Positions 23,852 to 36,748 of a stretch of 64,000 nt of DNA are shown here, piece after piece. The notes beneath the pieces are model-generated. The model saw only the letters and a program-made list of their open reading frames with translations, was not told where the DNA came from and did no database searches. The DNA comes from an uncultured delta proteobacterium. GTDB lineage: Bacteria; Myxococcota_A; Polyangia; Polyangiales; Polyangiaceae. Each line of letters begins with the position of its first letter. Position 1 is the stretch's first letter. Location of the stretch: positions 3,552,001-3,616,000 of the forward strand of contig CAWAIF010000003.1 of the NCBI GenBank assembly GCA_963782055.1. The letters are read 5' to 3'. A program made the position numbers and the translations under genes.

Positions 23852-24243
23852 GGCCCAGGATGCCGCGTTTCGCGGGGGCTTGGGTAGCGGTTCCAGCTCA
23901 GCCGGTCGCGGGCGGCCCTTTCAGGTTGTCGCGGGACGGTCGTCGGTGTGCAGGATGGCACCCGGACCGTCGCTCCGAAGCTCTCCGCCCGCCTCGTGGC
24001 GCGGGCTCCGGGTCGTGTTACATTCGAAGCATGACGCCGAGCGCGGGCAGCTGCGAACCAGCTCCCGGAATGGTCCGGCAGGGAGATTGCCTCGTCGAGC
24101 TCCGGCTCGAAGGCGCACCTCCACGCGCGCGCGGCGACGGCAAGGCGCGGGCTCCCAACCCGCGGCCCATGAAGGAAACGCTCGTGGAGGCGGTCGCGAT
24201 CTTCGAGGCCGACCCCCGAGTGCCGGCGCGTCCGGAGGAGGTA

Positions 24244-24249
24244 TACAAT
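24244..24249 (+). promoter_or_regulatory. Probable -10 box (TACAAT) of the ncRNA candidate
   Basis: Near-consensus TACAAT in a locally AT-rich patch about 12 nt before the structured region; -35 is weak. Confidence 0.5.
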
Positions 24250-24260
24250 CATGCATAGTA

Positions 24261-24501
24261 CCCGTGGCCCCAACCTGGATGGGCTGACGCCGTAGCTCGT
24301 GTGCGTGTCCGGTTCGCGTCCCTCTCGAGAGGGCGCGAGACCTCCCTCCGTGTGAACGAAGGTGGTCGAGCGGTCCGCAGAGCGCGGACCCTCTCGGACG
24401 TGCGTACGGCCCCGGGGTTCCATGAGGTTGCCGGGCACCGAGCCCGGCGTTCGGCCTCATGCAACCGGGTGGCCTGGTCGGCTTCCAGTTAGGTGGCCGG
24501 G
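24261..24501 (+). ncRNA. Unassigned multi-branched structured RNA candidate
   Basis: 5' and 3' ends are complementary; nested helices with G-U pairs favouring the + strand; GUGA GNRA tetraloop; upstream -10 and downstream terminator. Confidence 0.55.
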
Positions 24502-24543
24502 ATGGCCCGGGTGGCGCTCGTCACCCGGGCCATTCTTTATTTT
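24502..24543 (+). terminator. Intrinsic terminator
   Basis: ATGGCCCGGGTGGC-GCTC-GTCACCCGGGCCAT hairpin followed by TCTTTATTTT. Confidence 0.75.
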
Positions 24544-25891
24544 GTGGCGGGCGAGGGGGCGCCGAAGTACCCCTAGCGTTGCTCTGCGGGACTAACTCAG
24601 TTGGTAGAGTGCCAGCTTCCCAAGCTGGATGTCGCGGGTTCGAATCCCGTGTCCCGCTCATAGTTTCATGTACTTGGGCGCCGTTCGGACGTTTCCCGGA
24701 CGATTCGTTTCCGCCACCTCCCGCACCGCCAGCGTCGGGCGCGATGAGCGATGCCGGCAGCGGGCCGAAGGGCTGGCCAACGTCGCCGTGCCCCACCGCT
24801 TCCGCTTCGGCGATGTAGCGCTGCGTGGTCGCCGTGTCCGCGTGTCCGAGTCGCGTTTGGATCTGCAGCTCGCGCGCGCCCCCAATCGCAAGCCACGTTG
24901 CGAACGTGTGGCGCAGGTCGTGGAAGCTCAGGGGGCGCCGGTGCTCGTCGGCGGCGTGTAGCTCCTGGCGCGTCACCTTGGCGAGCTCCAGGTGCTCGCG
25001 CATCCGGCCGGCGCGGGTCGCTGTCTTCTCGTTCGCAGGCGTCTCGAGCAACGTCGCTTCCGCGTCGCGCCCTTCGACGAGCGCCTCGAGCAGCGGAAGG
25101 AGGTTCGGCTCGATGGGGACGCGGCGAGCCTTCCGCCCCTTGGTGCTCTTGGTGCCCCCCGTCGCCCGATCGTGGGCGTGGTGCACGCTGATGTAGCCAC
25201 CGTCCAGGACGACGGCGCCGACGCGCAGCACGGCGAGCTCGCCCCGGCGTAGGCCAGTGTAGAGCGCCAGCGCGTAGAGCACGCGGGCCGATCGCGGCAC
25301 GTCTTCGCAGGCCAGGAGCTTCGCGGCCTCACGAGGGAACAGGTAGGCCGACTGCCGCTCTTCCCCAGCGTCCGGGCCTCGCACGCCGTCGACGGGGTTG
25401 CGCTCGAGCACGCGCAGCTCGAGCCGCTTGGAGTGCGTCGCATCGTCGAACATCTTCGAGAGGGTGCCGAAGACGTTGGCGGCCGTCTTCGCGGCGATCT
25501 CCCCTGCCCTGACTCGTTCGTCGAGGCGAGCCACGACGCGTTCCACGTCCTCGCGCGACACCGCCGTCATGACCAGATCCCGCATGATCGGCAGGATGTG
25601 GAATCGCAGGTGCGCGCTCGCGTCCTTGGGATCGCGCCGAGTCTTGAGCCACTTTTCGGTCCACACGTCGACGGTGTTCCCCGTCAGGGCCCCCCGCTTC
25701 GGCTCCGGGAGCTTCTCCCAGCCTTCCGCTTCCGCCTGCCTCGTGAGCCGCACCGCTTCGGCCCGCGCGTCCTGCTCGGACACGCCCACGGACAAGCACA
25801 CGCTGTTGCCGCGCGAGCCGTCCGGCAACGTGACGCGTATGTCCCAGTGGTTCCCGTGCCAGAAGGCGGAGCCCGTGCGGGTGCGCGGCAT
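24521..25891 (-). CDS. Tyrosine recombinase (integrase); integrated-state form reading through attL and antisense to tRNA-Gly
   Basis: YTGLRRGEL, STKGRK, FHDLRHTFA, RLGH, TTQRY catalytic motifs. Confidence 0.92.
   Translation of the reverse strand: MPRTRTGSAFWHGNHWDIRVTLPDGSRGNSVCLSVGVSEQDARAEAVRLTRQAEAEGWEKLPEPKRGALTGNTVDVWTEKWLKTRRDPKDASAHLRFHILPIMRDLVMTAVSREDVERVVARLDERVRAGEIAAKTAANVFGTLSKMFDDATHSKRLELRVLERNPVDGVRGPDAGEERQSAYLFPREAAKLLACEDVPRSARVLYALALYTGLRRGELAVLRVGAVVLDGGYISVHHAHDRATGGTKSTKGRKARRVPIEPNLLPLLEALVEGRDAEATLLETPANEKTATRAGRMREHLELAKVTRQELHAADEHRRPLSFHDLRHTFATWLAIGGARELQIQTRLGHADTATTQRYIAEAEAVGHGDVGQPFGPLPASLIAPDAGGAGGGGNESSGKRPNGAQVHETMSGTRDSNPRHPAWEAGTLPTELVPQSNARGTSAPPRPPQNKEWPG
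24586..24658 (+). tRNA. tRNA-Gly (anticodon CCC); CCA not encoded
   Basis: GCGGGAC/GTCCCGC acceptor stem; ACTC-AGTTGGTA-GAGT D arm; CCAGC-TTCCCAA-GCTGG anticodon arm; GCGGG-TTCGAAT-CCCGT T arm. Confidence 0.97.
24639..24659 (+). repeat. attL core (21 bp, 3' end of tRNA-Gly)
   Basis: TTCGAATCCCGTGTCCCGCTC, identical at 35059..35079. Confidence 0.92.
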
Positions 25892-25894
25892 GGC

Positions 25895-26173
25895 CTACGC
25901 CTTCCCTTCCGCCGCCGCGTGCGGCTCGCCTTGGTGGGCGGCGCACTCGGCGCACCGGCCCGCGTCGTCACTCTCGCTAGCGTGCGTGGCGGCGCCGCAG
26001 CCGGGGCAGCGGTCCAGGTCGAAGGTGCGCCCGCTCGCCACGTCCTCGCGGAGTGAGGCAAGCAAGACGCGCATCGGCGCCAGCGCGGGCGCCTCGGCCA
26101 GCGCGGCGATCGTCGCGTCAAGGACGGCCAGCACCCGAGCGCGCTCCTGACGCACGGCCTCGCGGGCGTTCAC
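25895..26173 (-). CDS. Hypothetical protein with CxxC...CxxC zinc-finger-like motif
   Basis: CPGCG...CAEC; GTGA-coupled to the upstream RHH ORF and directly before int. Confidence 0.55.
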   Translation of the reverse strand: MNAREAVRQERARVLAVLDATIAALAEAPALAPMRVLLASLREDVASGRTFDLDRCPGCGAATHASESDDAGRCAECAAHQGEPHAAAEGKA

Positions 26174-26367
26174 TTCCGCCCCCGGCGCTTCGCGGGCTTC
26201 GCCGTGGGCTCCACCACGATTCCGAGCGCGCGGGCCTCACGCGCGACAAGCGAGCGAATGAGCCCCGCGGCGCTCAGGCTGGACGCATCGGCCACGGCGT
26301 CGAGCTTGGCGCGGTCGAGCGGCGAAAGGCGGATCTGGAACGTGGTCTCTTTCAGGTTCGGGTCCAT
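26170..26367 (-). CDS. Ribbon-helix-helix (CopG-like) DNA-binding protein, 65 aa
   Basis: AGGAGA RBS before ATG at 26367; TTFQIRLSPLDRAKLDAVA...LSAAGLIRSLV pattern. Confidence 0.65.
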   Translation of the reverse strand: MDPNLKETTFQIRLSPLDRAKLDAVADASSLSAAGLIRSLVAREARALGIVVEPTAKPAKRRGRK

Positions 26368-26628
26368 GGTGATTCTCCTACCTGAGACTGTACGTACATT
26401 CTCAGAAGAGTCAAGCCCCCCAAGCAGATCCCCCACCTCCACGCCCAGCGCCGAGGCGATGCGGGCGAGCCATTCGGCCGATGCGGCAACCTCGCCACGG
26501 CACACCCGGTAAAGCTGCGCGGTGCCCACGTTCGCCTTCGTGGCGAGCCGAAAAAGGCTCATGCCTCGCGCCTCCGCAAGTGCCCGGATGTTCCGCGCAA
26601 TTCGTTCCCGCATGCCTTGTCCGTCCAC
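26170..26628 (-). CDS. XRE-family HTH regulator, in frame with the RHH ORF with no stop between them
   Basis: IARNIRALAEARGMSLFRLATKANVGTAQLYRVCRG...WLARIASALGVEVGDLL. Confidence 0.65.
   Translation of the reverse strand: MDGQGMRERIARNIRALAEARGMSLFRLATKANVGTAQLYRVCRGEVAASAEWLARIASALGVEVGDLLGGLDSSENVRTVSGRRITMDPNLKETTFQIRLSPLDRAKLDAVADASSLSAAGLIRSLVAREARALGIVVEPTAKPAKRRGRK
26382..26405. promoter_or_regulatory. 24-bp operator-like palindrome overlapping a minus-strand sigma70-type promoter
   Basis: CTGAGA-c-TGTACGTACA-t-TCTCAG; on the minus strand TTGACT-N16-TACAGT then AGGAGA and ATG. Confidence 0.65.
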
Positions 26629-26750
26629 GCCCGAACGCTACCGCCCCTTGTCCGGCGGTTGTGGATGGTCGTACAAGATCACATAGGCTCGAAACGAAAC
26701 GGCCCGGCGAGGCGCAAACCTCCCGGGCCAGGCCACCAAGGAGATTACCC

Positions 26751-27083
26751 ATGGCGACGACAAGCAATGTGGACGTAGTGCGAGCGCTCGGCAAGCTGGA
26801 CGACGCGATCATCGACGGCAAGCGGCTCCTGCGGGCCGAACGCATCGGGCAGCTACGAGCCCTCGCGTACGAGGCGGTGGGCATGGCTCGCCACGACACG
26901 CGCACCGGCGAGGGCGTAGGCCCCGACGATGCGGACGTGGTGTTTTTGATGTACGGCCCCGAAGGGCTGGACATGGTGGAGCGCGACGTGTTCATCAGGC
27001 ACGCCAGGGCGGCGCTGGCGCCCCCGGTGCCCCTGTCCCCCTGCGACGTGGCCCGCGTCGCCCTGCGCCGGGTGCCGCGATGA
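26751..27083 (+). CDS. Hypothetical protein (110 aa), divergent cassette gene 1
   Basis: AAGGAG RBS before ATG at 26751; ATGA-coupled to the next ORF. Confidence 0.6.
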   Translation: MATTSNVDVVRALGKLDDAIIDGKRLLRAERIGQLRALAYEAVGMARHDTRTGEGVGPDDADVVFLMYGPEGLDMVERDVFIRHARAALAPPVPLSPCDVARVALRRVPR

Positions 27084-27316
27084 TCGGCTACGAGGCGGCG
27101 GGCTCGGTCTGCGGATCATGTGGCCACCACCACCGGACGATCGCCACGGCGTACGCCTGCGCGGACGCGCACGGGCGGGCCATCGGGCGCGCCTACCCGA
27201 GCACGTTCCCCACGCGGGCGTACAGCGATCGGGTCGTCTGCCGTCTAGACGGCGAGCCGCTGTCGGAAGCGGAGCAGGACGAGCTTGTGCAGGCGGCCGA
27301 AGCCGCGGACGAGTAG
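27080..27316 (+). CDS. Hypothetical Cys/His-rich protein (78 aa), divergent cassette gene 2
   Basis: GSVCGSCGHHHRT...C motif; followed by a hairpin. Confidence 0.55.
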   Translation: MIGYEAAGSVCGSCGHHHRTIATAYACADAHGRAIGRAYPSTFPTRAYSDRVVCRLDGEPLSEAEQDELVQAAEAADE

Positions 27317-27323
27317 CACCGCA

Positions 27324-27674
27324 TCACCTCGCAGTACGAGAGGGCTCCGCGGCTTCGGCTGCGGGGCCCTTCGCTTTGGCCCGCAGCTCCCGCACCTCTT
27401 GAAGCAGCTCGGTGCATCGCGCCTGCGTGCGCGCGAGGGCGTCGGCCACCGCGGACCGCTCCCCGGCGAGCTTGCCGATCGCGTCGTACACCAGCGCGTC
27501 AAGCATCTCGGCGCGAAGCTCCGCGGTCCAGGCGCGCGCGTCCTGCGCGATGCGGAGCTCCCCGTACTGGCGCCGCCCGGTCGCGAGCCGATCCGCAATC
27601 ATGCAGAGTACACGCACCTCGTCCGGGCCCAGCGTCGCCACGATGGCGCCCAGGCGATCCGCAGGGCTCACCAC
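27324..27674 (-). CDS. Hypothetical phage-type protein, possibly an all-alpha NTP pyrophosphatase
   Basis: RLATGRRQYGEL...AEMLDALVY followed by a coiled coil. Confidence 0.5.
   Translation of the reverse strand: MVSPADRLGAIVATLGPDEVRVLCMIADRLATGRRQYGELRIAQDARAWTAELRAEMLDALVYDAIGKLAGERSAVADALARTQARCTELLQEVRELRAKAKGPAAEAAEPSRTAR
27341..27377 (+). terminator. Terminator-like hairpin with C(UUCG)G loop
   Basis: AGGGCTCCGCGGC-TTCG-GCTGCGGGGCCCT then TCGCTTT. Confidence 0.6.
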
Positions 27675-27910
27675 GGGGACTCGTCCTCGCGCTGCCTCTG
27701 GAAGTAGTCCGGCGAGTGCGGCTTCGCGATGTCATGAGCCGCGGCAAGGCGCCCGGCCTCGTCCAGCCGCAGCGTGGGCATGTCGCGCGGGCGCTCGGGG
27801 CTTGGCGCGCCCGCGTCGCGCGGGACGATCGTCCCGTCATCGATCAACGCGGCGCGGAGCTCGCGCGCGAAGGCCCGCCGTGCGCTGGAGTGCGTCGTCA
27901 GATCACCCAT
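27668..27910 (-). CDS. Hypothetical protein (80 aa)
   Basis: GGAGG RBS before ATG (MGDLTTHS); stop overlaps the next start. Confidence 0.5.
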   Translation of the reverse strand: MGDLTTHSSARRAFARELRAALIDDGTIVPRDAGAPSPERPRDMPTLRLDEAGRLAAAHDIAKPHSPDYFQRQREDESPW

Positions 27911-28182
27911 GCTTTGCCTCCGCGCACGCGCACCGTCACGCGCTCGCCCTGGAGCATGCCTCGCCGGTGCACCATGACGAACCGGCCGTGCCCCAGCCGA
28001 ACCGTGGCGGTGCCGTCGTCGCAGTGCACGACCGTGCCGTCGAGCGCAGAAAGCGGCGGGTGGGCGCGCCGATCGAGGGGAGGCCTTCCCCTCTCCGGCG
28101 CCGCGAGGGGAGCCAACCCTCGCGCACGCGGGTGGATAGTCCGCGCGGCCCGAGACGATGCGACGGGATGGCGCCGCCGCAT
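27898..28182 (-). CDS. Hypothetical protein with beta-rich (OB-like) C-terminus; start and frame uncertain
   Basis: LDGTVVHCDDGTATVRLG...GERVTVRV; a competing ATG at 28198 lies in another frame. Confidence 0.3.
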   Translation of the reverse strand: MRRRHPVASSRAARTIHPRARGLAPLAAPERGRPPLDRRAHPPLSALDGTVVHCDDGTATVRLGHGRFVMVHRRGMLQGERVTVRVRGGKAWVI

Positions 28183-28194
28183 CGCCTATGTCCT

Positions 28195-28620
28195 TCATGG
28201 CGCCGCCCGCCACAGGTCGGCGGGCGCGGCCTCTTCCGGTGCGGGGCGGACCATGGTGGCCACCTCGTACTTCGCGATCGTAGTCGCGACCGGGAGCAGG
28301 ATCAGCGCCCACCGATGCGTCCAGGGAAGGGGGCCGAAGTCGGGGGCGTCCCGGGCGATGATCGCTTCGACGTTCCCGCGCATCGTGCGCCCGGCGATCT
28401 CCGCGCCCCCGTCGTCGTCGCCCGGCCACATGACCACCGTGTCATCCACCCGCGAGAGGAAGGCATCGCGGTCCGCAAAGGCGACATGGCACGCACGGAA
28501 GACCATGTGCTCGTCCACGGTCGCGCCGCCCAGGGCGACGAAGTGATCGGTGGGGCAGTCGGCGAGCCCGGCGCGCAGCGCATCGATCAGCGCGTCGACC
28601 GTGGCGTCGCCGGTGCTCAC
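28195..28620 (-). CDS. Hypothetical protein
   Basis: GTGA-coupled to the upstream ORF in the element's long operon. Confidence 0.55.
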   Translation of the reverse strand: MSTGDATVDALIDALRAGLADCPTDHFVALGGATVDEHMVFRACHVAFADRDAFLSRVDDTVVMWPGDDDGGAEIAGRTMRGNVEAIIARDAPDFGPLPWTHRWALILLPVATTIAKYEVATMVRPAPEEAAPADLWRAAP

Positions 28621-28985
28621 GACTCACCCGCGGCGAGGGCGAGACGCGCGAGCCGGACCGCCTCGGCGGACTCCGCTTCGCGACCCTTTGCGAGGAGCCG
28701 CCTCGCCTCGGCCGGCGTGATCGAGCCGAGCACGTAGCGGCCAGTCGCGCGCTCGTAGTGCACACCCTCCGCCGGCGATCGGAGCCCCATGCGAGCGGCG
28801 ATCCGTGCGTGCTCCGGGCTCTTTGTCGAGGGTCTGGGCTTCGTCGCGAGGATCTTCTTCGCCTGCTCCCTCGAGATCGGGCCCAGGGTGAAGAGGCCTC
28901 CCGCGAATGTCGAGACGGGCGCCTCGCCGTGGAAGACGCCCATGCGCCGATCGATCTCCTGCTGTTCTGCGGTCCGCTTCTTCAT
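28617..28985 (-). CDS. Hypothetical protein with a short internal repeat
   Basis: ATGA-coupled; IDRRMG...LGPISREQAKKILA and IAARMG...LGSITPAEARRLLA. Confidence 0.55.
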   Translation of the reverse strand: MKKRTAEQQEIDRRMGVFHGEAPVSTFAGGLFTLGPISREQAKKILATKPRPSTKSPEHARIAARMGLRSPAEGVHYERATGRYVLGSITPAEARRLLAKGREAESAEAVRLARLALAAGES

Positions 28986-29782
28986 CGGAGCAACTCCCTC
29001 TCCGCGCTGGTGCGCTTGAGATCCAAGGCCGCAACCTCGGAGTCATCCGCCGGCGCCTGGCGCCTCCCGCGCGGCGGCGCGGGGGCCTTAGGGGCGCGTG
29101 CAGCCTTTTTCGCCTCGGCCTTCTTCGCGATGAGCGCGGCCTCAGCGTCGCGGGCCGCGGCGTACCCATCGACGCGGCACACGCGCGAGCGCAGCGACTC
29201 TCCGCGAGCGCGCACGATCTCGGGGTCGATCGAAGCGTGGAGCCGAACGACTGCGCGCTCCACGGCTCGCTCGAGCTCCGCCACGGAGTCGCCGAACTCG
29301 AGCGGCCCGCAGGTCGAGCGCCCGACGCGGGCGATCAGGCTGTCCGCCAGCGGGCCCGCGTGGTCCGTCTCGTACTGCGTGAACGCCGGCGACCCGTGCA
29401 TCGCGACCCTCTCGTCGCCGTGCGCCGCCGCTGCAATCAGGTGCCACGCCGAGAGCTCGCCACCGAGTTCTTCGCGAGCGCGCCGGATGATCTCGCCGGC
29501 GTTCCGGATGACCTCCGCCCAGCTCGCGCGCTTGCCGTCGCACGCGGCGATCGCGTCGCGCCAGTCGGAGACGAGCGAGAGAATTTCGGCCTCCTGCCGC
29601 GCGCGGGCCGCGGCGGCGGCGGCCTCGGCGTCTTTGATCCGGGCGGAGTGCTCGCTCGTCATTGCGAGCCGCGCCGCCCGGTGGACGTGGTCGAGTGCGG
29701 AGAGCTCGTCCAGGCACGAGCGGGTGAGGTCGTCCAGCGCGCGAGCGCGTTCGGCGTGCGAGGTGTGGGTCACGTCGGTCAT
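28982..29782 (-). CDS. Hypothetical helical protein (266 aa)
   Basis: ATG at 29782 overlaps the upstream stop; Ala/Arg-rich helical composition. Confidence 0.55.
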   Translation of the reverse strand: MTDVTHTSHAERARALDDLTRSCLDELSALDHVHRAARLAMTSEHSARIKDAEAAAAAARARQEAEILSLVSDWRDAIAACDGKRASWAEVIRNAGEIIRRAREELGGELSAWHLIAAAAHGDERVAMHGSPAFTQYETDHAGPLADSLIARVGRSTCGPLEFGDSVAELERAVERAVVRLHASIDPEIVRARGESLRSRVCRVDGYAAARDAEAALIAKKAEAKKAARAPKAPAPPRGRRQAPADDSEVAALDLKRTSAERELLR

Positions 29783-30030
29783 GCGGACACCCTGCTCCCG
29801 TCGGAGTCTACAGTTGTGGAATTCGTCGGAGGCGCGAGCCACGACGCGGGCGCGATGGCGTACACCTCGGCGAGGCGAACGGCGACGCGGAGCCCGGGCA
29901 GTCGCGTCCCCGCGAGAAGGGAGTAGAGGGTCGCGCGCTTGATCCGTGTGTGGTGCAGGACGAGCGTCAAGCCGTCGCGCGCGACCACGGCGGCGAGCGC
30001 CTCACGGCCTGCACTTCGCGCGGGGGTCAC
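29779..30030 (-). CDS. Cro/XRE-like HTH protein
   Basis: GTGA-coupled start; IKRATLYSLLAGTRLPGLRVAVRLAEVYAIAPASW. Confidence 0.55.
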   Translation of the reverse strand: MTPARSAGREALAAVVARDGLTLVLHHTRIKRATLYSLLAGTRLPGLRVAVRLAEVYAIAPASWLAPPTNSTTVDSDGSRVSA

Positions 30031-30191
30031 GGCTCGTTGCCCTCCGGCGCGGGCGCCGGCGCGCGCGAGGGCTCCGCGGCGGGGCGCGGGGCTCCGCACG
30101 TGGGGCACCGCCCCTTCTTGCGGGCGAGCTCCGCCAGTAGGCGCCTCGCGAGCGACGCCGCCGGCGAGCTCGGGGCTTCGGGCGCCCTCAC
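30027..30191 (-). CDS. Small hypothetical protein with CPTCG motif (54 aa)
   Basis: GTGA overlaps at both ends within the coupled operon. Confidence 0.4.
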   Translation of the reverse strand: MRAPEAPSSPAASLARRLLAELARKKGRCPTCGAPRPAAEPSRAPAPAPEGNEP

Positions 30192-30772
30192 GGCTTCATG
30201 CCCTCCAGCGCCGCAGCAACGGCCCCCATCGCCTCCGGGTAAGGCTCGAGCGCATCGCCGATCGCGACCTGGATCCTCGCAAACGTGGGCGTGCTCAAGA
30301 TCCGCCGATCGAGTGCGGCGCCGTCGATCTTGTCCAGGATGGCCAGCGACGCGCAGCACGAAGAGACGACGCGCGCGCGGGCGGACGGAGGCAGGCCCGC
30401 GGCTCCCTTGGCCCGGAGCGCCCCTAGCAGCCCGGCGATCGTCTTCCGGAGCTCGCTAGCCACCTCGTCCACGTCGAGCGCGTCGGAGTCGCTCTCGCCC
30501 ACCGAAGGAGGGTCACCCTCCTTTTCCCTGCGCGGCGGGGCCTGGCTGGCCTCAGGGAGCGCCGGGCCGCACGCCTGGTCCCAGGCGCCCACCGGGATGG
30601 CGTAAGCGGCCTCAAGGGCCCGCCTGGCGGCCGCGCCGGGCCTGCTCCGGCACTTCGTCCAGTGGTGCGCCGAGGTGACGGAGGCGCCCGCCGCCGTCGC
30701 GATTTCCTCGAGGGTGAGGCCAAGCCGGGAGAGCAGATCGGCGCCGAGGTTGGCCTTGTCGTGTCGGGTCAT
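30188..30772 (-). CDS. HTH-containing protein, possible small-terminase-like
   Basis: ATG at 30772; N-terminal HTH (LTLEEIATAAGASVTSAHHW...RPG); C-terminal ILSTPTFARIQVAIGDALEPYPEAMGAVAAAL. Confidence 0.55.
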   Translation of the reverse strand: MTRHDKANLGADLLSRLGLTLEEIATAAGASVTSAHHWTKCRSRPGAAARRALEAAYAIPVGAWDQACGPALPEASQAPPRREKEGDPPSVGESDSDALDVDEVASELRKTIAGLLGALRAKGAAGLPPSARARVVSSCCASLAILDKIDGAALDRRILSTPTFARIQVAIGDALEPYPEAMGAVAAALEGMKP

Positions 30773-30908
30773 GTCGTTTTCACCTGTGAAGGTTTGAGTT
30801 TTCGGAAGCGGCCAGTTCCACGCGACGCACCCCCCGGTGTTGTGCTCCCCACCACTGTTGAAGGGGGGGTCATGGTCACCAGGGCGGGCCACGGCGGCGC
30901 AGTCGAAG

Positions 30909-31081
30909 CGTGGGCGCGTGGGCAACGTGGGTACCCACGCCGTGTGCCCACCCGTCCACGCCCCAAGCGTGGGCGTGGGCACGCAGGGGGGGTAACCCCC
31001 GCAGGCCTGTCGCTCCCCTGGCACTGTTTGTGAGGGGGGGTGCATGGGCTCGTGCTGCCCCTCTGCTCTGCCCACGTTGCC
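30909..31081. repeat. Iteron-like CGTGGG/CCCACG cluster
   Basis: CGTGGG at 30909, 30917, 30926, 30968, 30974; inverted copies at 30934 and 31071; GGGGGGGTAACCCCC near-palindrome at 30986..31000. Confidence 0.55.
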
Positions 31082-31138
31082 CTGTGCGGGCCTCGCTCGA
31101 GGGGGGCGGGCCGGCGTGCATGGTGGGGGCAGGCCAGC

Positions 31139-32395
31139 TCACGGCCGCGCCTCGTGGGTTGAGTCCTCGGTGGCGGCAGTCCCGCTCTCCACACACCCCT
31201 CAGAGGTTGACGACGGACTGGACTCCTTAAGGCTGGAGTCCGAGTCCTCCGTCAAACCAGCCGGACTCAGTCCGCCGTTAGTCCTCGGTGAGTCCTTCAG
31301 TCCTCCGTCAACGCGAGGGGCAGCGCCCGGACGGAACTCGGACGAGCGGCCGACCTTGGCGCGGTGGATCTCGCCGGCCTCGATGGCCCCCTGGACAGCG
31401 AGGGCCACCGTGGACTTCATGGCGCGGACGGCCATCCGGATCGCGTCGACGCTGGCCAGGGGGGCACCGTTGGCGCAGGCGCGCGCGACGGCGGCTACCA
31501 CCTTGGGCTGGACCACTCGCAGGGCGGCGGCCTCCTGGGCGGCGGCCTTCTCAGCCCGAACGTGCTCGATGCGCTCGGCGCTGAAGAGCTTGATGGCCAG
31601 CCCGCTCTTCGGCCCGAAGTCGCCGGGCACGTCCTGGATCTCGACGTTCAGATCGTCCACGAGCTCGCCGTGCTCGCGGGCCTTCTCGCAGGCGATCTTG
31701 ATGGGCTCGCCCTTCTGCGCGGTGAACACGTAGATCGCGTCGCAGCCGTCGTAGAAGCCGGAAGATCCACGGATGGTGAACTTGGCGCCGGCGTCGTCTT
31801 GCTGGGGCTTGCGCGCGTGGTGGATGACGATGGCGCGGCACCCGGTTTCCTCGGAGAGAGAGCCGAGCAGGTCCAGCGAGCGACGCACCTCCGAGCTGTT
31901 CTCGTCCACGTCAGGGCACGCCGCGCGCCATGAGTCGATGACGATGAGCGCGCGCCCCTTCATGAGCGACACCCACCGATCGCGGTGCTCGGCGACGAGC
32001 CGCAGATCGGGCCGTGACGCGACGACGATGCGATCGCCGAGCTCGGCGAGGTCGATGCCCATGGCGTGGGCCAGGCGCTTGTAGCGGCGCTTCGTGAGAC
32101 GCACGCCTTGCTCGAGGTCGGCGTGCACAACATCCGCCGCCGTGCACCTGAGCCCGCCCCACGCGGCGCGGCCCGCGGCCATGGCGAGCACGAGGGCTTG
32201 CGCCAGCATCGTCTTTCCGGAGAAGCCGTAGCCCGCGAACATGTGCGGCGCTCCGCTGCCCGCGGTCATGCCGAGGGCTTCGACGATGTACTCGAGCGGC
32301 GGATCGTCGGTCGCGAGCGCGGGGCCGTTGAGCAGGACGATCGCGTTCGGATCCGGCGCGGCCGGCTTGCCCTCGAGGCTGATCACGTTGCTCAC
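31139..32395 (-). CDS. RepA/AAA_25-type (RecA/DnaB-like) replicative helicase
   Basis: GTG at 32395 overlapping the primase stop; Walker A GYGFSGKT, ADLEQG, LIVIDS, IHHARK, IRGSSG. Confidence 0.8.
   Translation of the reverse strand: MSNVISLEGKPAAPDPNAIVLLNGPALATDDPPLEYIVEALGMTAGSGAPHMFAGYGFSGKTMLAQALVLAMAAGRAAWGGLRCTAADVVHADLEQGVRLTKRRYKRLAHAMGIDLAELGDRIVVASRPDLRLVAEHRDRWVSLMKGRALIVIDSWRAACPDVDENSSEVRRSLDLLGSLSEETGCRAIVIHHARKPQQDDAGAKFTIRGSSGFYDGCDAIYVFTAQKGEPIKIACEKAREHGELVDDLNVEIQDVPGDFGPKSGLAIKLFSAERIEHVRAEKAAAQEAAALRVVQPKVVAAVARACANGAPLASVDAIRMAVRAMKSTVALAVQGAIEAGEIHRAKVGRSSEFRPGAAPRVDGGLKDSPRTNGGLSPAGLTEDSDSSLKESSPSSTSEGCVESGTAATEDSTHEARP
31162..31303. repeat. Iteron-like AGTCC/GGACT cluster at the helicase 3' end (candidate replication origin)
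   Basis: 11 copies in about 140 bp, both orientations, around CCTTAAGG at 31225..31232. Confidence 0.6.
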
Positions 32396-33297
32396 GATGC
32401 GCTCCGGTTCTGTAGGGGTCGCAGATCGGAACGCTTCCGCGCGCCGTCCAGCTTGTGCGCGAGCTCGCCTTCGCTCCACGGCGGCTTGCATCGGATGTTG
32501 AACTCGGCGAGCAGCGCCTCTTGCTCGGCGTGGCTGTCGACGTTCGCGACGATGACGCACGCGGCGCGAAAGGTGGCCTTGTGCCCTCCGGAGCCAGAGA
32601 CGGCCGGATCCATCGCAGCGAGGTACGCGCGCACGCGGTCCAGGGTCGGCGTCCGGCCGATCGTGGCCTGGGCCCTGGCGAGCATGGCTCGCGCTTCGGC
32701 CTCGAGCTCGGCGGCGGTGACGAGTGCGGCGTCGACGTCGAAGGGCCGGCCGTCGCTCGCGTAGCACTCCCAATGCCCGCCCGGCCGAACGCAGGGCAGG
32801 TACCAGAGCCGGCACGGATCCACCGCGCTCGAGTCGAGGGGAGCGCCAGCGTCCCGAAGGTTCGCGTGCACGTTGCCGATGTAGCGCGCGTGCTCGTCGC
32901 CCGTGGCGGGCCTGGACAGCGCCACGATCGCGCGCCAGCGGGGCGCCTCCACCGTGCTCGAGAACGTCGTGTAGACGACGTGGCGGTAGCCGCTGAGGAG
33001 CGCGTGAGCCCTCGCCACCGGCATCCCGGTTTCGTCGCCGTCGAGCCCCAGGGCGGTGACGCGGGCCACGTTGGCTTCGCAGCGCGGGCCGTTCAGCTCG
33101 GCGAGGCAGAAGGCGCCGTGCTCTTCCTTCGCGGTCGCGCGCACGGGGTTGCCGATCCACCGGAGGAGCCCGTCCCAGTCTTCTCCGTCGACCCAGATCC
33201 CACGGGGCTTCGGAATGCCGTTGGCCCACTGGCCTTCGGGGGTCCTGGCGAGCTTGCCGCCGAACCAAAGGCGCTCGGGAGGGTAGAGCGTGATCAT
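32392..33297 (-). CDS. Primase-like protein (AEP/prim-pol type with C-terminal helical domain)
   Basis: LGLDGDE, YTTFSST, PRWRAIVALSRP, DPCRLWYLP, PAVSGSGGHKATF...FNIRCKPPWSEGEL. Confidence 0.7.
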   Translation of the reverse strand: MITLYPPERLWFGGKLARTPEGQWANGIPKPRGIWVDGEDWDGLLRWIGNPVRATAKEEHGAFCLAELNGPRCEANVARVTALGLDGDETGMPVARAHALLSGYRHVVYTTFSSTVEAPRWRAIVALSRPATGDEHARYIGNVHANLRDAGAPLDSSAVDPCRLWYLPCVRPGGHWECYASDGRPFDVDAALVTAAELEAEARAMLARAQATIGRTPTLDRVRAYLAAMDPAVSGSGGHKATFRAACVIVANVDSHAEQEALLAEFNIRCKPPWSEGELAHKLDGARKRSDLRPLQNRSAS

Positions 33298-33641
33298 GCT
33301 GCTCCCAGGGCCGGAGGCAGGTGGATCCACGTCCGCGTTCTGCCGCTCGCGTGGCAGTGCACGACGATCGCGCCGCACCGGGGATCGTGAGCCCTGACGA
33401 GCGCGGCCTGGCGCCGATAGTCGAAGCGCTCGAGGACGCCGGCCACGGCCTCCAGGTTGCCGACGAGCATCTGATCGTCAACGACGAGCGCGGCGTCTGC
33501 ACCGTGTGCGAGGGCGGCCTCTCCAGCGGCGAGGAGCGCGGGGTCGTTGCAGGGTGTGGAGTCGTCGGCTAGATTTCTCACGTTCGTTCCGTTCTCTCGA
33601 GGCGCCGCGCTTTCCTTGCTGGGGGTCGCGGCGTCTCCCAT
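33294..33641 (-). CDS. Hypothetical protein
   Basis: ATGA-coupled to the primase gene. Confidence 0.45.
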   Translation of the reverse strand: MGDAATPSKESAAPRENGTNVRNLADDSTPCNDPALLAAGEAALAHGADAALVVDDQMLVGNLEAVAGVLERFDYRRQAALVRAHDPRCGAIVVHCHASGRTRTWIHLPPALGAA

Positions 33642-33648
33642 TTCGGGG

Positions 33649-33825
33649 TCAGCGTTTCGCGCGCTTCCGGAAGCCCATCTTTTCGAGCAGCGCGTCACCG
33701 GAGGCGCGCGCCTTGTCCGCGTCGAGGCGCCGCGCGCGGCGGGCTCCGATCGTCGTGGGCTGCAGACGAGCGGCGACGAGCTCGGCCACGCGCTCGGCGA
33801 GGGCTTCCAGCTCGGCCGGCGTCAC
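33649..33825 (-). CDS. 58-aa protein MTPAELEALAERVAELVAARLQ...GFRKRAKR (below ORF-track cutoff)
   Basis: GTGA-coupled to the upstream ORF; amphipathic N-terminal helix of a kind common in small phage DNA-binding proteins. Confidence 0.5.
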   Translation of the reverse strand: MTPAELEALAERVAELVAARLQPTTIGARRARRLDADKARASGDALLEKMGFRKRAKR

Positions 33826-34013
33826 GAGCGGCCACCCGGCAGGACTTCGAGCGTCCGCGGTCCGAGCACGATCCCGAGCTTCGCGGCCTGCTCGATGATG
33901 TCCTCACGAGCTCGCCGGACGCCGATGGCGTGCGCCCCTTGCTCGATGGCCTTGCGCGCCGTGGCGACGGCGACGCGAGCGTGTGCGGCGAGGAGAAGCA
34001 CCTGGTCAGGCAT
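33822..34013 (-). CDS. Small hypothetical protein, possibly DNA-binding
   Basis: First ORF of the replication operon; LAAHARVAVATARKAI looks HTH-like. Confidence 0.45.
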   Translation of the reverse strand: MPDQVLLLAAHARVAVATARKAIEQGAHAIGVRRAREDIIEQAAKLGIVLGPRTLEVLPGGRS

Positions 34014-34105
34014 GGGGTGGAAAACGATTCCCACGCTCGCCCATCGTTGCCACGCGTCTGCTCACACCTGCAGGTGTGCGAATCGCACCTATTACGTGAG
34101 CGATC

Positions 34106-34801
34106 TCACCCGCGGTTGCGGAAGTTCCAGACGCCTCGCGCGACTCCAGACGGGACACCGCACGTCAGCAGGAACTGCACGACCATCGTCTCGGCCATGT
34201 AGTAGTGCTCGCCCGGCTCGCCGCGTTGGCGCTTGCGTTTGAGCGTGGCCGTGAACGCGCGTTGCCACGCGTCGCCCTCGATCTTCGCTTCCGTCGTGTG
34301 CTCCGCGACGAGTGCCCGAAGGTTCGGCGCCCCGTACAGCACGAGCACGGTGAGGGTGCGCGCGATCTCGTCGGTAGGGCGGCCCATCTCCAGGTGCTCT
34401 ACAAGCACGCGGTGGACGTCTTCCAGGTCGTCTTTCCGCTCTTGCGCGATCTGCGGCGGGTACTTGTGAGCGCTCTTCAGGTGCAGCGCGGCACGGTTCG
34501 CCAGGCCGTGCACGGCCTTCGCGTCGCCCTCGCGAAGAACCGTCAGCACGCGGGCCACGTCGACAGCGTGCGCGCGCGCCTGGGGGTCCACCGTGGCCTT
34601 CGCGATGAAGGTCCACATGGCAAAGAGATCCCCGAGTCGGCGCGTAGCCACCGCCAGCGTCTCGGGCGAGCCCCAAGGCAAGTGCCCATCGTCGGCGCGC
34701 AGCTCTTCCACGACCGGAGGAGGCGCGGGGCGAGGTACCGCACGCGGCCGCGTCGGCGCTCTCCGTCCGGCCGGGGTCGCCGTCGCTTTCTTCGTCGCCA
34801 T
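34106..34801 (-). CDS. Hypothetical protein (231 aa)
   Basis: ATG 4 nt after the stop of the detached integrase C-terminal segment. Confidence 0.55.
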   Translation of the reverse strand: MATKKATATPAGRRAPTRPRAVPRPAPPPVVEELRADDGHLPWGSPETLAVATRRLGDLFAMWTFIAKATVDPQARAHAVDVARVLTVLREGDAKAVHGLANRAALHLKSAHKYPPQIAQERKDDLEDVHRVLVEHLEMGRPTDEIARTLTVLVLYGAPNLRALVAEHTTEAKIEGDAWQRAFTATLKRKRQRGEPGEHYYMAETMVVQFLLTCGVPSGVARGVWNFRNRG

Positions 34802-34805
34802 GGGC

Positions 34806-35058
34806 CTACTCACGATCGCGCCTCCGCTCTGCCAGATCAACCACGTCCGCGCCGCCCTGGCCCGCGTCGTCGCCGCCCAGGAGCTCGCCTTCCCAGCGGT
34901 GCACGAGCTTGGCCAGCGCGACGTCTCGAGCAGCGAGCGCGGCGCCCTTCACGGCGGCGAGGGCGCGGTGTGCGTCGAGGCGCGGATCGGCGCCGGCTTG
35001 AATCGTCCTCGGGGACAAACTGCTTGGGAACTGTGCGGAATTATTGGGCTGACACGTT
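34806..35058 (-). other. Detached 3' segment of the integrase gene (in frame after excision)
   Basis: Joining at the att core gives ...SGTRDS-KTCQPNNSAQFPSSLSPRTIQ...VVDLAERRRDRE* with no stop. Confidence 0.75.
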
Positions 35059-35079
35059 TTCGAATCCCGTGTCCCGCTC
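35059..35079 (+). repeat. attR core (21 bp)
   Basis: Exact copy of 24639..24659. Confidence 0.92.
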
Positions 35080-36004: not shown

Positions 36005-36748
36005 ATGAAGAAGCTCGTCCTGCTCCGCCACGGCCAGAGCCAGTGGAACAAAGAGAACCGCTTCACCGGGTGGGTGGACATCCCGCTCAGCGAGGAGGGG
36101 CTCGCCGAGGCGCACGCCGCCGCCAAGCTGCTGCGCGAGGGCGGCTACGACTTCGACGTGGCGTACACCTCGGTCCTGAAGCGCGCCATCAAGACGCTCT
36201 GGGTCGTCCTCGAGGACAGCGACCGGATGTGGCTCCCCGTCATCCGGAGCTGGCGCCTCAACGAGCGGATGTACGGCGCCCTGCAAGGGCTGAACAAGGC
36301 GGAGACCGCCGCCAAGCACGGCGAGGCGCAGGTGCAGATCTGGAGGCGCAGCTACGACACGCCGCCCCCCGCGATGGAGGAGAGCGACGAGCGCTGGCCG
36401 GGGCGCGACCGGCGCTACGCCGGCCTCCCCAGGAGCGAGGTGCCGCGCACCGAGTGTCTGAAGGACACCGTCGCGCGCTTCCTTCCCTTCTGGGAGAGCG
36501 ACATCGCCCCCGCCATCCGCCGCGGCGAGCGCGTGCTCATCGCCGCGCACGGCAACAGCCTGCGCGCGCTGGTCAAGCACCTGGACAAGGTGGGCGATCA
36601 GGAGATCGTCGGCCTGAACATCCCGACGGGCATCCCCCTCGTCTACGAGCTGAACGACGACCTCACCCCGATCAAGCACTACTACCTGGGCGATCCGGAG
36701 GCGGCGAAGCGCGCGGCGGAGGCCGTCGCGGGGCAGGTCAAGGGCTGA
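36005..36748 (+). CDS. gpmA: 2,3-bisphosphoglycerate-dependent phosphoglycerate mutase
   Basis: [48 protein letters not shown]. Confidence 0.96.

Follow-up and report, generated by a model that had tools for sequence, protein, structure and literature searches.

The window analysed here is a stretch of 64,000 nucleotides from the genome of an uncultured delta proteobacterium of the family Polyangiaceae (contig CAWAIF010000003.1, positions 3,552,001 to 3,616,000; all coordinates below count from its first letter). It carries, at 24639..35079, an integrated element whose tyrosine integrase gene, int, is crossed by the attachment (att) site of the element itself. As judged from sequence comparisons, recombination at this site is shown to remove from the gene, and to restore to it, a conserved and folded C-terminal tail. 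We consider it probable, with roughly two chances in three, that this arrangement works as a switch comparable to that of the Myxococcus phage Mx8: by analogy, the long form, encoded only by the free circle, would be the efficient integrator, and the tail-less form would be weaker and would serve excision.

The integrase gene and its two forms

The att core is an exact repeat of 21 bp located on the plus strand at 24639-24659 and 35059-35079. The repeat is present at only these two sites of the 7.58-Mb genome and thus bounds an element that, once the two cores are merged, gives a computed circle of 10,420 bp. Since both cores are identical, the same junction is obtained wherever inside the core the crossover falls. 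The copy at 24639-24659 extends from the T-loop to the 3' end of an intact tRNA-Gly(CCC) (24586..24659, plus strand), which is the integration target and the sole tRNA-Gly(CCC) of the window; a copy with 100% identity is found in all six genomes of the same genus. This core copy also lies within int.

Read on the minus strand, the gene opens with the ATG at 25891 and meets no stop up to the core. Its 417 shared codons (24641..25891) encode an N-terminal arm-binding-like domain, a core-binding domain, a catalytic domain and the start of a flexible linker. In the integrated state, the frame continues antisense through the tRNA and gains a tail of 39 amino acids (24521..24640, minus strand; stop at 24521-24523), which yields a product of 456 amino acids. 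This tail is not conserved and displays a non-coding base pattern. In the computed circle, the frame enters the other arm of the element (34806..35058, minus strand), which completes codon 418 (Asn in the integrated state, Lys in the circle) and adds 83 codons and a stop at 34806-34808, 4 nt ahead of the ATG at 34801. The circle product thus counts 501 amino acids, of which the last 84 form the tail; the conserved part of this tail (34809..34988, minus strand) corresponds to a two-helix hairpin followed by a basic C-terminal end. All these values (456, 501, 417, 39 and 84 amino acids, the absence of a stop before the core and the spacing of 4 nt) agree with the initial annotation of the window, made from the letters and their open reading frames (ORFs).

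The initial annotation had also placed all catalytic motifs in the common part. The mapping of individual residues and the match to PF00589 (residues 199-363, 76.8 bits) confirm this: R215, K248/K251, H324, R327, H350 and Y359, whose catalytic roles we assume from the tyrosine-recombinase consensus, are all included in the 417 shared residues, and the core follows them in the same frame. The protein has the attributes of the lambda-type tyrosine integrases, namely the R-K-H-R-H/W-Y set and a three-domain fold, the latter taken from the model of its homologue P0011, whose core finds its best structural match in lambda Int (E 2.7e-12).

According to the initial annotation, the integrated frame stops inside a terminator hairpin. 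The position is right, as the stop codon lies in a hairpin at 24499-24536 (24499..24545 together with its T-run). The T-run of this hairpin is however on the plus strand and a similar hairpin precedes the tRNA in the six same-genus genomes, which identifies it as a host terminator for the strand opposite to int and not as a demonstrated end of the int message.

The circle tail as a coding module

In the window, which has a GC content of 71%, 50% of random start positions are followed by at least 84 open codons and 69% by at least 39, so that the open frame reported by the initial annotation is no proof of a tail by itself. An open frame arising by chance in GC-rich DNA, with a tail devoid of any role, is nevertheless an explanation to which we give next to no weight, as it is refuted by homology to two other sequences, by codon-position bias, by base composition and by the statistics of the family.

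The first of these sequences is P0011, a natural integrase of 502 amino acids encoded by a single ORF and 55% identical to the window integrase over the core. Its C-terminal segment displays 50% identity with the circle tail over 58 residues (E 2e-12), including the motif WEGELLG. The second is the integrase of L091, an element of 10.2 kb inserted at a tRNA-His, which is 63% identical to that of the window; the tail read in its circle frame shares 33 of 54 residues with the window tail. Mismatches between these two tails are distributed as 15/15/35 over codon positions 1, 2 and 3, the same pattern as in the integrase core (111/91/200), and different codons are used at 21 of the 33 identical residues. 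For codon positions 1, 2 and 3, the conserved part of the circle tail has a GC content of 0.93/0.50/0.82, the integrated tail one of 0.67/0.67/0.49. The match to P0011, the third-position bias against L091 and the coding-type GC pattern together establish the window tail as a real coding module. On these codon data, the circle tail is under purifying selection. In the alignment with homologues, which the initial annotation had named as a check, it is the 84-residue tail that is resembled and not the 39-residue one, and fused proteins of the predicted length do exist.

Distribution of the arrangement in the host family

Relatives were surveyed in 151 genomes of the host family, including the own genome of the window, and in 301 genomes sampled across the phylum. 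Integrase relatives were detected in 69 of the 151 genomes, own genome included. In the phylum-wide sample, the integrase alignment matched 8 of 23 other host-family genomes plus two genomes outside the family, and the tail profile matched 11 of 23 host-family genomes and none of the 277 others. One integrase homologue comes from Polyangium aurulentum. Among GenBank phages only distant integrases were retrieved (all below 29% identity among the top 30 matches), and IMG/VR returned no relatives with two queries, the integrase alignment and P0017. A pattern scan of genome contigs with a single integrase protein also gave no relative, while the genome-wide search did recover relatives.

Stretches of up to 20 kb were taken around 60 of more than 100 matches, at the high-scoring end, two of which resolve to one gene. 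With seven sites of the own genome added, five of them having an integrase match, 65 loci were considered. An antisense tRNA or transfer-messenger RNA (tmRNA) gene follows int in 48 of them, and in 46 of these 48 the int frame enters the RNA gene. Both att copies were located in 28 loci; in the other 37, the stretch contained no further copy that was long enough. Two of the 28 were dropped, L060 (internal stop) and the tRNA-Pro integrase of the own genome (stop before the core). The 26 elements kept consist of 24 relatives, the window element and a sister element at a tRNA-Lys of the own genome. Their sizes range from 4.5 to 17.1 kb and their cores from 16 to 47 bp.

In these 26 elements, circle tails measure 68-159 amino acids (median 97.5) and integrated tails 0-51 amino acids (median 6.5). 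A circle tail of at least 60 amino acids is open in the int frame in 26/26 cases, versus 5/52 control frames; in 24 elements, the int frame outlasts both of the others. When each tail was tested against a profile built without it, 19/26 surpassed all 200 shuffled sequences. The three possible phases through the tRNA T-loop all occur (10/9/6 of 25 scored), no fewer than eight types of tRNA serve as targets, and in the tree the phases and the targets are intermingled. This indicates that the frame has been kept through repeated changes of target. The circle tail is also in frame in L047, in L091 and in the tRNA-Ser element of the own genome, joined over a contig gap. As a separate observation, L033, L050 and L063 have a tmRNA gene as target, which the int frame also enters; their far ends were not found in the fetched stretches.

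The frequent passage of the int frame into an antisense RNA gene speaks for an effect on abundance, in which either the circle tail would make the protein or its mRNA more stable, or the integrated message, running antisense to the tRNA, would be damped for that reason. The lambda sib element is an example of retroregulation. A comparable loss is described in PMC7721734 for Vibrio cholerae Aux3, where an IS5 insertion cuts the integrase tail and lowers the level of integrase. The integrated tails are however variable in length and without common motif, which leaves no common degron, and a folded and conserved hairpin exceeds what a stability tag needs. Such an effect is unlikely to be the reason for the arrangement, and would be compatible with the Mx8-like switch.

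Structure and exchange of the tail

The alignment-based model of P0011 (mean predicted local distance difference test, pLDDT, of 86.5; a single-sequence fold with pLDDT 39 was set aside) displays three folded domains up to approximately residue 390, followed by a disordered linker that holds the att core. The tail then forms two helices (residues 446-463 and 466-481, pLDDT 86-89) and a basic end that is less certain. The tail family has the consensus ALxxAxxAGRxDVVAQLARELEARR, after which come NVVxL and basic residues. The tail families matched Pfam in 0/122 members and PHROGs in 1/122 (weakly), and the best PDB match has an E value of 0.075. A homodimer prediction for the tail scored 0.28, the mark being 0.42, and speaks neither for nor against a dimer.

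The tail is present on two well-supported integrase clades that are only about 25-30% identical to each other (the tree, a quick one, is relied on for these two clades only). The near neighbours of the window integrase carry either subtype of tail, which suggests that tails have been exchanged. A tentative extension, which we hold to be possible but short of probable, is that the tail is a portable directionality or synapsis module, grafted via attP onto at least two distant clades of tyrosine integrases and exchanged apart from the catalytic part, integration being one-way because the reaction deletes the tail from the gene. The coiled coil of the large serine integrases offers an analogy for a tail acting as synapsis domain. 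If this were true, about 2,000 database clusters labelled as small hypothetical proteins would be severed integrase tails.

Searches from the tail and natural fusions

A second set was built from the tail instead of the integrase: 20 regions around 33 hits of the tail profile in the 301-genome sample, loci already used being excluded, contained 23 hits of the tail motif. Six elements of this set are complete, with an integrase and a shared core in the fetched stretch; in each of them the tail is in the frame of int, with no stop before the motif. A strict T-loop motif lies upstream of 12/23 hits versus a background of 14%. Against 1.84 billion representative sequences, the tail profile obtained 2,003 matches at E 0.001 or better. 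Among the best 150 of these, 139 have at most 160 amino acids; full-length integrases account for three, and a further five consist of an integrase fragment fused to the tail.

The shortness of most matches is what would be expected if the tail were a stand-alone small gene at the end of the element (a regulator or an excisionase), its fusion to int being incidental. The same explanation draws on an ORF of 70 amino acids with a TTG start that can be called at 34806-35018, on Atlas look-alikes that are short hypothetical proteins, mostly from Myxococcota (scores below 0.9, a lead only), and on the lack of a clear att core at some tail hits. An independent gene would however share the frame of int in one case out of three, where the tail-first elements give 6/6, with a linker free of stops from the core onwards. 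A start with a ribosome-binding motif occurs in only 5 of the 26 tails and is missing from the window tail. Natural fusions exist, and the short ORFs of the databases would be the output of gene callers for the separated arm. All this makes a stand-alone gene very unlikely.

Fusions of this kind are frequent, as 11 of 55 database homologues of the integrase carry the tail motif at the C-terminus of one ORF (482-558 amino acids), while the short homologues end mostly in tRNA-antisense peptides. The fused proteins P0010, P0016 and P0020 are encoded on contigs of 10,281, 9,932 and 10,109 bases, the size of a circle. The proportion of 11/55 suggests that excision is not rare. This is unfavourable to a suicide-like switch, in which the tail would be needed for all recombination, the integrated enzyme would be dead and excision would await a full-length enzyme supplied by an incoming or sister element or by a rare circle. 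That explanation finds some ground in the purifying selection on the tail, in the several sister elements of the genome that could help in trans, and in the SSV-type enzymes, described as suicidal in PMC8371274. It is weakened by the integrated form, which keeps all the catalytic residues and the three folded domains, and by Mx8, whose truncated form stays active as stated in PMC6070905. We judge it rather improbable.

Proposed mechanism

The sequence shows that attP sits in the linker, with the catalytic domain on one side and the conserved C-terminal helical hairpin on the other. Integration moves the arm coding for the hairpin 10 kb away and leaves a catalytically complete enzyme whose tail comes from the tRNA. 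By excision, int and the hairpin arm are rejoined in frame, and fused forms exist naturally in relatives. In the Mx8-like switch, the state of the DNA would thereby set the form of the enzyme without a separate regulator. The directionality switch put forward by the initial annotation would likewise follow from Mx8 by analogy. A small directionality factor encoded by the element would probably assist the tail-less form in excision. More speculatively, the amphipathic hairpin and the basic end might help the synapse between attP and attB, by self-association or by gripping the DNA.

Several observations weigh against this reading. The attP joint of the circle was not seen in contigs from one soil run (8% of words; thin cover; no RNA run among those listed), and no directionality factor was identified in the element. 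The window tail is a divergent subtype, with 7.4 bits against a profile lacking both itself and L091, 10.5 bits in the first leave-one-out test and 20.9 bits once L091 is included; 7/26 tails of the family do not beat all shuffles. The relatives being kin, the counts overstate independence. In the tail-first set, 11/23 hits have no strict T-loop motif and four have a stop between the T-loop and the tail motif; hits without a clean T-loop link may be decayed arms, arms with other cores or free-standing copies. Some natural fusions could be assembly products, for example misjoins at cores longer than the assembly word. Finally, the Mx8 tail obtains -0.9 bits against the profile of the family and is not homologous by this measure, and its function need therefore not carry over.

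Other genes of the element and its flanks

The gene that follows the circle tail (34106..34801, minus strand, 4 nt behind the tail stop) encodes an unknown protein of 231 amino acids for which no homologue was found. The initial annotation proposed that excision places this gene directly behind int; this is true of the present element, and as a trait of the family the coupling was rejected, with 4/26 elements against 27% of random positions. Just upstream of int lies an ORF of 92 amino acids (25895..26173, minus strand; weak match to PF25745), itself preceded by a regulator with a helix-turn-helix (HTH) of the Xre/CI type (26170..26628, minus strand; family match), the C-terminal part of which presumably is a ribbon-helix-helix, judged by eye. 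The only sigma70-like site between 24 and 36 kb points to int (26387..26414, minus strand; consensus match only). Downstream of it, the regulator contains an in-frame ATG at 26367 with the motif AGGAG; this start and the site at 26414-26387 could, from their positions, give a short HTH isoform and feed int. The tRNA-Lys sister element has retained the HTH fusion (40%) but not the ribosome-binding motif.

Two small divergent genes of 110 and 78 amino acids (26751..27316, plus strand) are common to the tRNA-Lys sister. A run of genes of unknown function separates them from an AAA_25 helicase-like replication gene (31139..32395, minus strand) and a primase-like gene (32392..33378, minus strand; phrog_9765, E 4.5e-13), both with approximate starts. 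No capsid or terminase match was found among the 22 ORFs scanned, in line with the capsid-less element of the initial annotation; most of these ORFs have no family and a divergent capsid is possible. No convincing repeats were found that could be arm-type binding sites.

The sister element at tRNA-Lys(TTT) (G000:C3:3417814-3428090) has a core of 47 bp and a size of 10.2 kb, of which 4.3 kb are 91% identical to the window element; its replication region is different. Its integrase belongs to the other clade and also crosses the core, with tails of 24 and 84 amino acids. A further element, inserted at tRNA-Ser(GCT), lies on both sides of a contig gap (G000:C3:1-3151 and G000:C2:1-26500) and is larger than the others, with at least approximately 29 kb; its far arm on C2 carries a core of 24 bp and a canonical tail and orients both contigs. 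Other repeats at tRNA genes were detected on contig C3 at 4707920 (tRNA-Thr, 47 bp, 10.0 kb), 6234313 (tRNA-Val, 46 bp, 11.6 kb), 5387335 (tRNA-Gly, 44 bp, 58.4 kb) and 6515205 (tRNA-Pro, 21 bp, 8.7 kb), the last being the one whose integrase ends before its core.

From the 348 proteins called in 27 elements, 80 were scanned and revealed varied primases, helicases and replication initiators. Seven elements of 9-17 kb (L037, L045, L048, L055, L059, L072 and L086) contain tape-measure-like, peptidase, baseplate, tail or head-protease-like genes, and no capsid was recognised among their scanned proteins; they might be satellites whose virion modules are incomplete. For the window element, a satellite-like life appears likely from its gene content.

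Concerning the flanks, the empty attB allele was not found in the six same-genus genomes: beyond the tRNA, the DNA of five of them is unlike the right flank of the element and the sixth carries a related integrase there. A gene of the phosphoglycerate-mutase type past the right end (36005-36748, plus strand) gave no match, with this query, in the six genomes, and the right flank may itself be variable DNA. Upstream of the tRNA, the stretch 24015-24545 (plus strand) is structured, with a fold of z -5.4 at 24250-24560, and has no Rfam match. The six genomes share a conserved block near 24215-24290, and a strong ribosome-binding motif precedes an ORF of 14 codons at about 24251. The stretch may represent a host RNA or leader not described so far, ending at the terminator 24499-24545.

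Comparison with known systems

The layout of the element presumably resembles that of satellites of the phage-inducible chromosomal island (PICI) type. It has a size of about 10 kb, an insertion at a tRNA 3' end, int, an HTH repressor, divergent small genes, a primase and a helicase. The gene set comprises an integrase, a repressor and a replication module without capsid or terminase match (22-24 ORFs; a divergent capsid is possible).

The initial annotation compared int with the archaeal SSV1. As in SSV1, pTN3 and pT26-2, the att site is inside the integrase gene and the targets are tRNA genes; the comparison does not extend further, since in these elements the catalytic part is split from the N-terminal part, and here only an accessory C-terminal tail is removed from an intact core. 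According to PMC8371274, the SSV-type gene is broken up into int(N) and int(C), of which int(C) is the catalytic piece, and neither of the two is described as active. The window integrase was accordingly rejected as an SSV-type suicidal integrase, as its arm-like, core-binding and catalytic domains are all in the shared 417 amino acids. The integrases of streptococcal integrative and conjugative elements inserted in rumA also have att within the gene and an excised form with another C-terminus, as a passage of PMC4701971 reports. They are however serine recombinases that target a protein gene, and have no relation to the present tail.

The likeness with Mx8, also put forward by the initial annotation, is closer, with the same geometry and similar sizes: a tyrosine integrase read antisense into the 3' end of a tRNA, attP behind the catalytic domain, and the exchange of some 100 tail amino acids for a short tail derived from the tRNA (84 versus 39 amino acids in the window; medians of 97.5 versus 6.5 in the family). 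Mx8 Int has 533 amino acids with the core near codon 420, Mx9 is reported to be similar, and Mx8 Int ranked fourth in the viral fold search. In two papers, attP of Mx8 is placed within int, which receives a new 3' end upon integration without the enzyme being inactivated (PMC6070905), and 112 residues are replaced by 13, the modified enzyme being less active (PMC4701971). The title of Tojo and Komano 2003, as it appears in the reference list of PMC11610982, states that excision can do without the Mx8 tail. PMC4701971, a survey of 2016, mentions att within the integrase as a feature of a very small number of integrative elements, with Mx8 as example, and PMC4383910 indicates that the program Islander lets int cross attP, citing Mx8 and SSV. 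Nothing relevant to the arrangement was found in passages of PMC5861418. Membership of the Mx8 Int orthologous group was rejected, given an identity of 28% over about 200 amino acids, the score of the Mx8 tail and a position outside both clades in the quick tree (long branch, unsure). Mx8 is moreover a phage of 49.5 kb, where the present elements have 4.5-17 kb, varied replication genes and many tRNA targets.

No description of this integrase family or of its tail was found in the titles and abstract openings searched, mostly open-access, and island databases may list such elements without comment. Annotation presents the integrated enzyme as complete and lists the tail apart from it, as a hypothetical protein of its own (the profile matches 2,003 clusters), and whoever clones these integrases from genomes obtains the truncated form if the circle junction is not reconstructed. 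The principle was already known from Mx8; its family-wide use in small elements and the unnamed, possibly portable, tail domain are new. In one myxobacterial family, the integrases of a large group have, as a rule, the att site within their own gene, and the old question raised by Mx8, the role of the tail, becomes testable with many natural pairs.

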